Part shown: piece by piece, positions 26,835 to 40,397 of the stretch | Layout: the number at the start of each line of letters is the position of its first letter | Numbering within the stretch: position 1 is the first letter of the stretch | Sequence record: OR352951.1 | From: Escherichia phage AV121 | Strand: one strand, 5' to 3' | Length of the DNA: 64,000 nucleotides | The notes under the pieces: generated by a model | What the model was told of the DNA's origin: nothing | The model's database searches: none | The model's input: the letters and a program-made list of their open reading frames with translations, nothing else | Program-made: the position numbers and the translations under genes

Positions 26835-26888
26835 TCCTCATGTTATGTCAGTAAGACTACTATAACACAACACGAGGGACTTGTAAAC
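26835..26888 (-). repeat. 54-bp promoter/5'UTR/RBS cassette, copy 1 (upstream of ORF 26537..26827)
   Basis: Identical to 40344..40397; minus strand reads GTTTAC-N18-TATAGT ... GAGGA, i.e. T4 early-promoter-like -35/-10 plus Shine-Dalgarno. Confidence 0.7.
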
Positions 26889-27246
26889 TGCATTTTGAAC
26901 TTTTTAGTACGCGGAATAGGCATGCGTCAATTTTATACTGCTTCATTGTTTGAAGAGCAGTATCAAAAACAGCATTAATGACGCCAATTGGATTTCCACC
27001 CAAGTTTTTAAGCTTAACCAGTGATAATTTCTCGTTGACACCTATCATTACGATATGCATCATTTTATCGCCTGGCTTAACGTTTTTATTTGTATCACCG
27101 CCAGAGGTGTATGTACAAAATCTAAATCCAGGAAGCACGCTTTCTTCGCCGGCTTGGATAGCAAAAATTTGTGGTATTTTATGCTTAGGATTTAAGTTAA
27201 CAACCGGCGCCGAAGCGCCGTCAAATAATTCTGTAATAAGTTCCAT
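26860..27246 (-). CDS. paralog of the Alt N-terminal domain (no ART catalytic region)
   Basis: 128-aa ORF aligning by eye with Alt residues 2 to ~125 (MELITELFD..NLNPK.KIPQIF..PGFR.CTYTSGGDTN..GDKMMHIV..QTM.QYKIDAC). Confidence 0.65.
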   Translation of the reverse strand: MELITELFDGASAPVVNLNPKHKIPQIFAIQAGEESVLPGFRFCTYTSGGDTNKNVKPGDKMMHIVMIGVNEKLSLVKLKNLGGNPIGVINAVFDTALQTMKQYKIDACLFRVLKSSKCSLQVPRVVL

Positions 27247-27249
27247 GAT

Positions 27250-29340
27250 TTATCCTTGAACGAACTTGTAAGGCATGTTTGTAATATCTATGCAAGACGC
27301 AATAATTCCAAGAGATGATTCTACTTTCTGTTTAACATTTGATGAAACAAATGATGCAAAGTCAACTCTATCTTCTATATCACCTGTCATTGCAACTACT
27401 TCGCCGGTTTCCATTAGACGGTCACCGTCATAAATTACCGATTCGGTGAGTTCTTCTGTGGTCATAACTTCAGCTTGAATGAGTTTTGTATTATTAGACG
27501 TGGTTCCGTCATTATTAGAAGCATCAGTTATTTTATTAACTTTGACCATCAATCCGCGCGGTAGAATAACTTCAGCTTCTGTTGCTATTCCGAGACTTCC
27601 TGGATATACAACATTAACTTTATGAGCTCCATCAATTGCCCATCCTATTTGAACTTTAACGTATTCAGGATTTTCTTTATACGCTCTTATTTCGTTTGGA
27701 TTAATAGTTATTCCTTCTTCATTTTTATCAACTGTTAATTCATTACGAGCTTCTGGTTCTAAAAGACCAATACCAGCATGTGTAATTCCAAAACGTCCAA
27801 AAATGATAGGAGTTAAAGAAGTAGATACAAAATTTCTGAAATAGAACACTTTATTTTTAACTAGGGCTTCGTATATAGGAGCAGTCATACTTTGAGCACG
27901 ATAAACTGTAATGCCTTTCGGTATGCGGTCACCATTTTCAAAAGCTGAATCTAAATTATTTATAGCAGATTCAATTTCTTTTTCACTCATTACATCATAT
28001 CGTTCTGGATTGTAACGACCTAAAAGAAGATTATTAATGTCTGTATATCCTGAGCCACAATATTCTCTAATGCCGCGCTTTTGTGATGGAGTATATTTAG
28101 AACCATCACGGGCAATAGTAATATCAATCATTGGACCAGCACCAATTCCAGAAAAACTATAAATCATTCGTTTGAGGAATTTAGTTTTTGCTGCATTCCA
28201 GGCATTTTTAGTTATTTCTCCCCAGACTTCATCTGGTTGTCCTTTACGAGTTTTATTATGTTTATCAAGCCAATTATCTTTATATTCTTCAAAGAATTTA
28301 TTAACAGCTGCTGCGTATTTCTCTAAACATTTTATTGAAGTAGTTGGTTCATTTTTAATTGCGTTAAAAATTACATCTTTAATTTTTTCTGAAACTTCAT
28401 CAACCTCACTTTTTGAAAAGAATTTATAGTCATAGTGAAGTTCATTCGCAGTTCCTTCGGCAATAATTTTTGCTGCCTTAGTTTTAGAAGCTAATGAATT
28501 AATTCCAAGCTTCATTTCTTCTGCTTCGGGAATTAAAGGAGCAGTAGCAGGTTTATTGAAATTAGCTGCGGTAGATTCATACTTCTGGAATAATTCACTT
28601 TCAAATCTAGAAGATTCCAATGACTGACTTTGTGCAATTGCTCTACGGGAAATTTTAACTTTAACGATTACAGCTTGGTCAGAACGTTTATCATTTTCTT
28701 GTGCAATAGACGCTGCAATTGCCTCATTTTTAGTTACTTGAGCTCCGGTATCTTTATTGATATAAACATCACCGACCTTCGATTCAACTTTAGTAAAGAG
28801 CTCGGTACTAATTTTCGGAACTCCTGGAATGTCTTCTAGTGATACATTTTTGCGATGTATAATAATATATGCATACTTTTTATCATAATCCCAGAGTTCC
28901 TTAAGAAGGACGTATCTGCCACCTGAACGACTACGGATAAGTCTATCAGCAATAACTTGAATTTGTCGAGCTTGACCAGCAGTTTTAGACTTAAGAATAC
29001 GGAGCATACAAGCATCAATTTTATACTGACGCATTGTTTGCATTGCAACAGTAAAAACTGAATTGATATAATTAATTGGGCTTGGACCAAGACCTTTTAA
29101 TTTAGCAATTGAACCTTTAGCAGTTAATGTAAAAGGAACAATATGCATCATTTTATCGCCCATCTTTAAATCGCGATTAGTATCACCTCCAGATGTATAT
29201 GTACATAAACGAAAGCCTGGTTGTTCAATTGCATCATCAACATGAACTGAAAAAATTTGCGGTATTTTCTTCTTTGGATTTAAGTTTGTAATCGGAAGAG
29301 TAGTATCTTCGTCAAATAATTCTGTAATGAGTTCCATCAT
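27250..29340 (-). CDS. alt: Alt ADP-ribosyltransferase (virion-packaged)
   Basis: 696-aa ORF; C-terminal half has ART-like R ... STS ... ExE (YRAQS, FVSTSL, ATEAEV); minus-strand TATAAATA 21 nt upstream. Confidence 0.85.
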   Translation of the reverse strand: MMELITELFDEDTTLPITNLNPKKKIPQIFSVHVDDAIEQPGFRLCTYTSGGDTNRDLKMGDKMMHIVPFTLTAKGSIAKLKGLGPSPINYINSVFTVAMQTMRQYKIDACMLRILKSKTAGQARQIQVIADRLIRSRSGGRYVLLKELWDYDKKYAYIIIHRKNVSLEDIPGVPKISTELFTKVESKVGDVYINKDTGAQVTKNEAIAASIAQENDKRSDQAVIVKVKISRRAIAQSQSLESSRFESELFQKYESTAANFNKPATAPLIPEAEEMKLGINSLASKTKAAKIIAEGTANELHYDYKFFSKSEVDEVSEKIKDVIFNAIKNEPTTSIKCLEKYAAAVNKFFEEYKDNWLDKHNKTRKGQPDEVWGEITKNAWNAAKTKFLKRMIYSFSGIGAGPMIDITIARDGSKYTPSQKRGIREYCGSGYTDINNLLLGRYNPERYDVMSEKEIESAINNLDSAFENGDRIPKGITVYRAQSMTAPIYEALVKNKVFYFRNFVSTSLTPIIFGRFGITHAGIGLLEPEARNELTVDKNEEGITINPNEIRAYKENPEYVKVQIGWAIDGAHKVNVVYPGSLGIATEAEVILPRGLMVKVNKITDASNNDGTTSNNTKLIQAEVMTTEELTESVIYDGDRLMETGEVVAMTGDIEDRVDFASFVSSNVKQKVESSLGIIASCIDITNMPYKFVQG

Positions 29341-29360
29341 ATCCTCTCTAGTGTTTATTC

Positions 29361-29368
29361 TATTTATA
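29361..29368 (-). promoter_or_regulatory. late promoter box (minus strand) for alt
   Basis: Plus-strand TATTTATA is TATAAATA on the minus strand, 21 nt upstream of alt ATG. Confidence 0.6.
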
Positions 29369-29373
29369 AAATT

Positions 29374-38969: not shown

Positions 38970-39196
38970 TTATTTTTCTCAACCAATGATTGAATATAAT
39001 CATGCAGGTCTTTAGATGCTTTGCCCCACTTATTTTGGTATTCATTTTTAAGATTAGCACGTGATTGAGCTAATAAAACATCATTAGTTGGAGGTAAAGA
39101 TTCTAATCGCTGAATCTGGCGTCCATAAATCATTGCAGCCATCTCGGATTCATAAATCAATCCTTTGAGATGTTCAAATTGATGCCATGAAATCAT
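38966..39196 (-). CDS. hypothetical protein
   Basis: 76-aa ORF, ATG checked. Confidence 0.5.
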   Translation of the reverse strand: MISWHQFEHLKGLIYESEMAAMIYGRQIQRLESLPPTNDVLLAQSRANLKNEYQNKWGKASKDLHDYIQSLVEKNK

Positions 39197-39492
39197 TTAC
39201 ATTTATCCTCTTTTAACTCTTGACGATAATAACATATCATAGTTTTCTGGTCGTGTACATATCGTTTTACATCATTAAGCCAAATACGAAATTCCTGAGA
39301 ATCTTCAAATGGCATACCGACCCAAGCTTTACCATCAATAACTTTAACTTGCCAAGATAATTTAGCTTCGTCATATGACTTTATTTGTACAGGCCAATTA
39401 GGATGAACTGTTTCTTTCTTTACTTCTAGAGGCTTTGTCGAACAACCAACTAGAAGACCAATAGATAATATTACTGCTGATAGTTTAATCAT
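39193..39492 (-). CDS. outer-membrane spanin (o-spanin) lipoprotein
   Basis: 99-aa ORF; signal peptide with lipobox LLVGC, C-terminal Cys residues; directly follows the i-spanin with a 4-nt overlap. Confidence 0.7.
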   Translation of the reverse strand: MIKLSAVILSIGLLVGCSTKPLEVKKETVHPNWPVQIKSYDEAKLSWQVKVIDGKAWVGMPFEDSQEFRIWLNDVKRYVHDQKTMICYYRQELKEDKCK

Positions 39493-39842
39493 TTAGAAAG
39501 GTCCTGGATGTCTTCTGCGAACTTGTTGAAGGAGTTGTTGATTTGTTTTTCAACCAATCCTGGCTTACGAGCCACCACATCCGCCTTCTTTGCATCTTTG
39601 CGCAGTTTTTCATTTTCACGCTCAATAGCAGCAATCGCCTCACGATTTTTATTATTCATCGCATCAATATAATTATACTGAATTCGCAAATTATTTAATG
39701 CTAAGGCGTTTTCATTGGCCGTTTTTGTAATTTCTACAACAGACGTTTCTAATCTTTCAATTTTATTTTTTAAAATTAAAGAAGTTCCGCCTAATGCAAT
39801 TACAATTAATAGCAAACCTGCTGTCGTATTACTTAATTGCAT
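39489..39842 (-). CDS. inner-membrane spanin (i-spanin)
   Basis: 117-aa ORF; N-terminal TM helix (AGLLLIVIALGG) followed by a coiled-coil-like periplasmic region. Confidence 0.65.
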   Translation of the reverse strand: MQLSNTTAGLLLIVIALGGTSLILKNKIERLETSVVEITKTANENALALNNLRIQYNYIDAMNNKNREAIAAIERENEKLRKDAKKADVVARKPGLVEKQINNSFNKFAEDIQDLSK

Positions 39843-40339
39843 AAAGTTTTAATAACCTCTATAATATCGTCTTGAGAAAGACCGTTAATTAAAATATGAT
39901 GTTCAGCCGGAGATTTAGAAATTTTAAAGCACGCCGCAACATCTTCTGCCATATCCGATGCGCTACGATTTGGATTACTAATTCCAAGACGATGTTTTCC
40001 CGTTAAAGGATTAACGATGATATAGCATTTACAGTTGTTAATATGAACATTAGGTTGAGTCTGATTAATGAACACATCGCAATCATATTTCGCAAGCTGA
40101 TTTTCTAAAAAGACTTTCATCTCCTCAACCGCATCAGGAAGCATATCACGGGCTTGCTCAAGACGACGATTTCGATATTCTTTAATGGTCGTTTTCCGCT
40201 TGACTTGCTTAGCTAAATCTTTCTTAAGATCGGTGATATATCCAACTCGACGATTTCCTTTAAATACAGAAATCCCATCTGTAGTATCACCGTATGCTTC
40301 AACGACCATTTCAGTAGTAATAAGCTGCAAATCCATCAT
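39833..40339 (-). CDS. alc: Alc, host transcription terminator/unfoldase
   Basis: 168-aa ORF (T4 Alc about 167 aa) upstream of rnlA; promoter/RBS repeat copy immediately upstream. Confidence 0.8.
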   Translation of the reverse strand: MMDLQLITTEMVVEAYGDTTDGISVFKGNRRVGYITDLKKDLAKQVKRKTTIKEYRNRRLEQARDMLPDAVEEMKVFLENQLAKYDCDVFINQTQPNVHINNCKCYIIVNPLTGKHRLGISNPNRSASDMAEDVAACFKISKSPAEHHILINGLSQDDIIEVIKTLCN

Positions 40340-40343
40340 AAAG

Positions 40344-40397
40344 TCCTCATGTTATGTCAGTAAGACTACTATAACACAACACGAGGGACTTGTAAAC
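40344..40397 (-). repeat. 54-bp promoter/5'UTR/RBS cassette, copy 2 (upstream of alc)
   Basis: Perfect copy of 26835..26888; flanking bases differ. Confidence 0.7.

Follow-up and report, generated by a model that had tools for sequence, protein, structure and literature searches.

Early promoter inside a predicted Shine-Dalgarno-masking hairpin: a cassette present twice, upstream of alc and alt.-3, in a T4-like phage

The genes e, soc, 49 and I-TevI of bacteriophage T4 are known for hairpins which sequester the ribosome binding site (RBS) and which are combined with an internal promoter (reviewed in PMC3014915, section 29). T4-like phages, on the other side, possess regulatory cassettes which have been described as promoter-early stem-loop (PeSL) elements (Arbiol et al. 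2010, PMC2839356; Comeau et al. 2014, PMC4122927). For the T-even phages analogues are mentioned in which a T4 early promoter is combined with a weaker stem-loop rich in AT (PMC2839356). T4 early promoters as such are composed of UP, -35, TGn and -10 elements (Hinton 2010, PMC2988021). Here we discuss a 54-bp direct repeat in a stretch of 64,000 nucleotides from Escherichia phage AV121 (sequence record OR352951.1), the whole of which is referred to as the window. Its two copies, A and B, precede the genes alt.-3 and alc, respectively. We consider it reasonably probable that the repeated unit is an early promoter embedded in a hairpin that masks the RBS, that this arrangement is ancestral at alc, and that alt.-3 acquired a copy of it in the ancestor of the genus Tequatrovirus.

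Promoter and hairpin of the 54-bp unit

On the minus strand the unit reads GTTTACAAGTCCCTCGTGTTGTGTTATAGTAGTCTTACTGACATAACATGAGGA and runs from 26888 to 26835 and from 40397 to 40344. Both copies are identical in 54 of 54 bp and lie in direct orientation; in a pairwise alignment including 100 nt of flank, identity drops to background on both sides, in agreement with an earlier note on this DNA, which had reported perfect identity between different flanks. Searching the window for the unit with up to three mismatches returned exactly these two sites and none of the further copies which the earlier note had considered, and 100 dinucleotide-preserving shuffles gave no match at all. According to a whole-window repeat scan, the unit is the sole long exact repeat of the 64 kb, the remaining repeat families being diverged coding repeats.

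A promoter scan of both copies detected TTTACA-17-TATAGT preceded by a TG (10 of 12 matches, with the TG), which equals the motif GTTTAC-N18-TATAGT read previously, if written as TTTACA-N17-TATAGT with TG at -15/-14. The unit hence looks like a T4-type early (sigma-70) promoter, with which it shares the -35 GTTTACA, the 17-nt spacer, the TGn and a -10 box matching TATAAT in five of six positions, as well as downstream genes that are early in T4. It deviates from other T4 early promoters in two respects. The repeat begins exactly at the -35, so that the AT-rich upstream parts are not shared (A/T-rich runs do occur upstream of both copies outside the repeat), and the identity over 54 bp is far above that of the other early-like promoters in the window, which have 20-36 of 54 positions in common with the unit or with each other. 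The T4 GenBank records contain no promoter features at the place of either copy; the depositors of phage Lutter annotated the place of the alt.-3 cassette hairpin as a promoter. The earlier interpretation of a promoter and Shine-Dalgarno cassette serving alc and an open reading frame (ORF) of 96 amino acids, which is alt.-3, fits the T4 early class and holds, with two amendments. The Shine-Dalgarno sequence is not located 8 nt before the start of both genes; GAGGA lies 7 nt before the alt.-3 ATG (26827), and at alc it is found 4 nt before the first ATG (40339) and 7 nt before the second (40336). Moreover, the description was incomplete, as the main structural feature of the unit, a 42-nt hairpin, had been overlooked.

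This hairpin comprises unit positions 12-53, that is 42 of the 54 nt, with positions 12-25 pairing with 40-53 and an inner stem formed by 28-31 and 36-39. Its fold has an energy of -22 kcal/mol (z = -5.4), and none of 200 shuffles folded as well. The 5' arm coincides with the promoter spacer, the -10 box (unit positions 25-30) occupies the top, and leader and Shine-Dalgarno sequence make up the 3' arm; the GAGG of the latter is paired with CCUC, also in the predicted folds including the flanks (-23 and -31 kcal/mol). Based on the usual distance of 6-8 nt after the -10, the transcription start is predicted near unit position 37 and thus inside the hairpin. Leaders beginning at this predicted start fold weakly (-4.2 and -4.8 kcal/mol, z = +1.1 and +1.2, no better than shuffles) and the 5' arm is absent from them, for which reason the Shine-Dalgarno sequence is predicted to be free in transcripts from the unit's own promoter. 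Two other possibilities were rejected: a hairpin acting in the promoter's own transcript, of which only the 3' arm would be transcribed, and control by RegB, as the leader is without GGAG. It should also be mentioned that an ATG in the 3' arm (ATGAGGA) opens a mini-ORF of five codons in copy A (26826-26843, minus strand) and of four codons in copy B (40338-40352, minus strand). Despite the different flanks both end at a TGA overlapping the gene start (ATGA); they have no Shine-Dalgarno sequence of their own and may be a coincidence.

The switch we propose would operate as follows. RNA polymerase would start within the hairpin at about unit position 37 and produce an mRNA without the 5' arm, in which the Shine-Dalgarno sequence would be free, and alc or alt.-3 would be translated immediately after infection. 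Transcripts entering from upstream, be it from rnlA or from alt and the late promoter preceding it, would hold both arms, in which case the Shine-Dalgarno sequence would be paired and translation poor. Expression of alc and alt.-3 would thereby be tied to the early promoter.

Expression classes of the T4 genes are available from an omics study (PMC9697503 supplement): alt belongs to the middle class as RNA and to the late class as protein, alt.-1 and alt.-2 are middle RNAs, RNA and protein of alt.-3 and of alc are classed as early, and rnlA is early as RNA and late as protein. The change from middle to early RNA occurs exactly at copy A, which fits an active early promoter at this place. With regard to transcripts from upstream, a late-promoter motif TATAAATA is present at 29361-29368 (minus strand), 21-28 nt upstream of the alt ATG, and a terminator scan revealed no terminator-like site on the minus strand between alt or rnlA and the cassettes, which together make read-through into both cassettes plausible. 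Altogether, 20 occurrences of the T4 late-promoter motif TATAAATA were counted in the window, compared with 9 expected from shuffles.

Conservation across genera and origin of the two copies

Regions upstream of alc were compared in seven genera, Tequatrovirus and six further ones, and the same type of design was found in STP4-a (Gelderlandvirus), UFV01 (Karamvirus), vB_KpnM_17-11 (Jiaodavirus), C6 (Dhakavirus), CHI14 (Winklervirus) and Rgz1 (Gualtarvirus). In all six the rnlA stop is followed by a GTTTAC promoter, the -10 is located within the loop or beside it, and a paired GGAG or GAGG is contained in the 3' arm; the 5' arm is situated within the spacer, except for Rgz1, where it comes just after the -10. 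These hairpins reach -13 to -25 kcal/mol with z-scores of -2.1 to -7.1. How far the arms have diverged can be seen from UFV01 (5' TCTCCATTT, 3' AAATGGAGA), vB_KpnM_17-11 (5' TCCTCATCA, 3' TGATGAGGA) and the unit of the window phage (5' CCTCGTGTT, 3' AACATGAGG), and all nine outer helix pairs, counted from the helix base, are changed on both sides across the seven genera. RNAalifold applied to a plain MAFFT alignment of the alc cassettes from seven phages gave no structure, the arms being out of register; after this result the sequences were folded individually and compared in a helix-anchored manner, fitted to the structure. What is informative is the presence of a significant predicted helix at the same place in each of seven genera, with a different sequence. 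Within Tequatrovirus 13 of 18 pairs are invariant and the changes mostly lead from G-U to A-U or from C-G to U-G, most variants retaining the pairing; one compensatory change from C-G to U-A was observed.

Several points weigh against an RBS-masking early promoter, at least as a general rule. The helices compared between genera derive from each sequence's own fold and their alignment was fitted to the structure, so that pairing of 100% is given by construction, and within Tequatrovirus covariation was not significant in comparison to shuffled controls (128/500), because the sequences vary little in this genus. Masking is not universal, since the Shine-Dalgarno sequence at alc is left free in CAU_ECP01 (Mosigvirus-like), Serratia phage 92A1 and Acinetobacter phage AB-Navy71, where the hairpins are placed in the spacer or over the -10. 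Within the window itself, minus-strand early-like promoters from 37077 and 50927 contain hairpins of 8-11 bp that are centred on the -10 and end short of the Shine-Dalgarno sequence (z = -3.4 and -3.5). Hairpins centred on the -10 may thus have a second, more general role, and they look like a general early-promoter design in the window phage. The inner stem (GTGT...ACAC), furthermore, partly overlaps with motifs conserved among the aligned cassettes, and the start site on which the switch depends is a prediction from the position of the -10.

Outside Tequatrovirus, alt.-3 is also preceded by TAG followed by GTTTACAA … ACATGAGGA, but the sequence in between is different. In the outgroup cassettes sampled, namely those of FB (Dhakavirus), PhAPEC2 (Mosigvirus), kv_tblp2 (Klebsiella phage) and IME523 (Kanagawavirus), the spacer forms no more than a small hairpin and folding is weak (z = -2.0 to +1.0). 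As the alc-type architecture is present at alc in seven genera and the alt.-3 promoter differs outside Tequatrovirus, the direction of copying points from alc to alt.-3: judging from this small outgroup sample, the alc cassette probably replaced an old alt.-3 promoter in the ancestor of Tequatrovirus, with copy B being the ancestral one. The replacement could have taken place by homologous exchange bounded by the motifs which both cassette types have in common, TAG with GTTTACAA as one border and ACATGAGGA as the second, corresponding to the -35 and the Shine-Dalgarno region. Afterwards both copies would have drifted by a few bases and occasionally exchanged sequence with each other.

The alc cassette of CAU_ECP01 was found to be without a hairpin masking the Shine-Dalgarno sequence and to resemble the alt.-3 type: 28 of its first 30 nt match the alt.-3 cassette of Dhakavirus FB, and roughly three quarters of the aligned positions, with gaps, match its own alt.-3 cassette. 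A second exchange between alc and alt.-3, in the opposite direction, may therefore have happened in Mosigvirus. That the promoter-in-hairpin at alc represents a conserved, hitherto undescribed "early-only" translational switch and at the same time a module exchanged between alc and alt.-3 more than once in Tevenvirinae is a more far-reaching though doubtful extension.

As to the age of the duplication, T4 (NC_000866) holds both copies, the alc copy being identical to that of the window and the alt.-3 copy differing in one base. A blastn search with the 54-mer retrieved 499 phage records with 997 places, about two per record; IMG/VR offered five related contigs per gene, and sampling was therefore done from the phage GenBank collection. 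At least one exact 54-mer is contained in 257 records, and if 10 nt of copy-specific downstream flank are added, exact matches are obtained in 192 records for copy A and in 139 for copy B. Both copies as in the window are estimated for about 74 of the 499 genomes, a rough figure affected by flank variation and by the trimming of BLAST ends. In 15 genomes which were read, copy A and copy B differ by 0-5 nt, most of those sampled by 1-5. The duplicated cassette is thus an old and ordinary feature of Tequatrovirus and not specific to the window phage, whose identical copies, judged by these comparisons, have both kept the commonest sequence and do not result from recent copying.

Whether this sequence is retained under purifying selection or actively maintained by frequent gene conversion (concerted evolution) deserves consideration, and we regard the latter as rather unlikely. 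It would explain why PP01 and UFV10 carry the same double change from TATAGTAGT to TATAATAAT in both copies, why the copies of GBLB0003 have two variants in common, why several variants are met in A and B contexts of different phages, and why both copies are exact in an estimated 74 genomes compared to about 53 expected for independent copies. However, most of the sampled genomes differ by 1-5 nt between their copies, the excess of 74 over 53 is small and confounded by kinship among the records, changes from G to A towards TATAAT could recur independently, and PP01 and UFV10, for which shared ancestry is possible, may represent a single event. What the variants common to both copies suggest is occasional exchange.

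Alternative roles and genomic neighbourhood

Instead of controlling translation, the hairpin might mainly act on transcription or RNA coming from upstream, as an attenuator, terminator, insulator or 3'-end stabiliser which sets the units of rnlA and alt apart from the downstream early genes, a role that has been suggested for PeSL stem-loops; the masking would then be incidental. We think this unlikely as the main role, while noting that it is compatible with the switch proposed above. According to Arbiol et al. (PMC2839356), a PeSL stem-loop lowered lacZ expression to the same extent as a strong terminator, the hairpin of the alt.-3 cassette was entered as a rho-independent terminator by the depositors of SA20RB (WebGeSTer), and the hairpins centred on the -10 with free Shine-Dalgarno sequence, seen at other early-like promoters of the window and at alc of 92A1 and AB-Navy71, are in line with such a function. 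On the other hand, no U-tract follows the stem (GAGGAACACAAA and GAGGACUUUAUG), the terminator scan was silent on the hairpin, and A-U and G-U pairs are abundant in the stem; the conserved, covarying outer stem is exactly the pairing between anti-Shine-Dalgarno and Shine-Dalgarno sequence in seven genera.

The earlier note had understood the repeat as a portable cassette copied recently and as a substrate for deletion of the intervening alt-ligase-cd-pseT block, and as a main role in the window phage this is highly improbable, even though the copies are identical and direct, about 50 bp of homology can suffice for T4 recombination (Singer 1982, cited in PMC2839356) and PeSL mini-circles have been documented between nearby PeSLs. 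That one copy derives from the other stands; "recent" is contradicted by T4 and the 499 records having both, by copies mostly non-identical (0-5 nt in the sampled genomes) and by only about 74 of the 499 genomes having both as in the window. Likewise, 54 bp of direct homology would be enough for recombination, but genes 30 (ligase) and 31 (co-chaperonin) belong to the 13.5-kb block, and the gene order between the copies is intact in the records inspected. Both genes are essential in T4, so that the deletion could exist only in the form of rare, non-viable molecules or circles.

The 15-kb stretch with both copies matches Tequatrovirus (T4-like) phages, the best match being Shigella phage JK23 with 97%, and by this similarity the window is assigned to a phage of this genus. 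Gene names were taken from the JK23 and T4 annotations together with the ORF list of the window. On the minus strand, rnlA (gene 63) is followed by copy B, alc, pseT.3 … pseT, cd, 31, rIII, 30.x, 30, alt.1, alt, a remnant of 128 amino acids from a second alt gene, copy A and alt.-3, after which a terminator-like hairpin and gene 54 on the opposite strand are reached (Table 1). The TAA stop of rnlA lies 3 nt upstream of copy B. At copy A, the -10 box TATAGT includes the TAG stop of the remnant. Where a phage has two complete alt genes, the second one stops with a TAG, the G of which is the first base of the copy A repeat. The second alt gene is of full length in JK23, T6, PP01 and others, and compared to JK23 about 1.69 kb of it are missing in the window. 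The junction of this deletion (26899-26907, where the aligned blocks overlap by 9 nt) is located 11-19 nt upstream of copy A and outside the unit, and a deletion mediated by the cassette was consequently rejected.

Table 1 Features of the two loci in the 64,000-nt window of Escherichia phage AV121
Feature	Position	Strand	Remarks
Copy A, 54-nt cassette	26835..26888	-	exact match; upstream of alt.-3
Copy A core promoter	26859..26888	-	-35 GTTTAC(A) 26888-26882, TGn, -10 TATAGT 26864-26859
Copy A hairpin	26836..26877	-	5' arm 26877-26864; 3' arm 26849-26836; -22/-23 kcal/mol; predicted start ~26852
Copy B, 54-nt cassette	40344..40397	-	exact match; between rnlA stop and alc start
Copy B core promoter	40368..40397	-	-35 40397-40391, -10 TATAGT 40373-40368
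Copy B hairpin	40345..40386	-	5' arm 40386-40373; 3' arm 40358-40345; -24.4 kcal/mol, z = -5.7; predicted start ~40361
alt.-3 (96 amino acids)	26537..26827	-	served by copy A; 99% identical to T4 Alt.-3
alc (inhibitor of host transcription)	39833..40339	-	served by copy B; from annotation/ORF list
rnlA (gene 63)	40401..41561	-	41561 is the mechanical ORF start; likely read-through source
Second-alt remnant (T4 alt.-1/alt.-2), 128 amino acids	26860..27246	-	last codons and TAG stop within copy A
alt (ADP-ribosyltransferase)	27250..29340	-	likely middle/late read-through source into copy A
Bidirectional terminator-like hairpin	26511..26532	both	closes alt.-3 unit against gene 54

Independent of the cassettes, the window has two distant sites with an identical 16-nt terminator hairpin core GGGACCTTTCGGTCCC, 11688-11703 and 26514-26529, the second of which is the terminator between alt.-3 and gene 54. 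An Rfam scan of positions 26000-41500 found nothing at copy A or copy B. Its sole match, Atu_C8 (a small RNA of Rhizobiales), at 33400-33483 on the minus strand with 31 bits compared to a gathering threshold of 50 (E = 0.006), is intergenic, shares its stretch with two terminator-like hairpins and probably arose by chance.

Comparison with known switches and cassettes

The present case offers a concrete and datable example of a whole regulatory cassette, consisting of promoter, hairpin and Shine-Dalgarno sequence, that replaced another one at a distant locus, and borders at shared -35 and Shine-Dalgarno motifs are what the idea of modular shuffling by PeSLs predicts. It further suggests that RNA structure, in addition to promoter class, restricts alc, and in Tequatrovirus also alt.-3, to early expression, which is directly testable in T4. 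Our view of T4 biology is not changed in a major way; the value lies in a clean example of cassette replacement and in a testable early-only switch. No paper describing the repeat or the hairpin was found in the accessible literature, a search outside which the main compilation of T4 early promoters falls, so that a prior description is possible.

With the hairpins of e, soc, 49 and I-TevI the unit shares the pairing of the Shine-Dalgarno sequence in transcripts from far upstream (predicted here from folds) as well as the promoter within or just after the 5' arm, by which transcripts without this arm arise that are translated. It differs in timing: those T4 genes have a late internal promoter and are kept silent early on by the hairpin, whereas the promoter of the unit is of the early type, the late motif TATAAATA not being present in it, and the hairpin would silence middle and late read-through. 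Neither alc nor alt.-3 is on the published list. By analogy, the unit would be a switch following the e/soc/49/I-TevI logic with reversed timing, a mirror image of the lysozyme/soc switch.

Similarity to the PeSLs concerns the order of elements, with an upstream stop codon, an early promoter, a stem-loop between -35 and -10 or over the -10, a Shine-Dalgarno sequence and a start codon, and also the repetition within a genome, the proposed function as a site of homologous exchange, and the PST/T4 promoter consensus TTTACW-N17-TAYWAT (Comeau et al.), which the unit fits. The published PST/T4 stem-loops are, however, located just upstream of the promoter, while the stem of the unit spans spacer, -10, leader and Shine-Dalgarno sequence, and only two copies of the unit sequence exist, flanking a 13.5-kb block with essential genes instead of one or two ORFans. 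Regarding the association of PeSLs with rearrangements, the probable replacement of the alt.-3 promoter would be such an event, and the 1.69-kb deletion of the second alt gene ends outside copy A. Given these likenesses, the unit seems to fit the definition of a PeSL and is, by analogy, best filed as a T4-type PeSL-like cassette with a putative RBS-masking hairpin.

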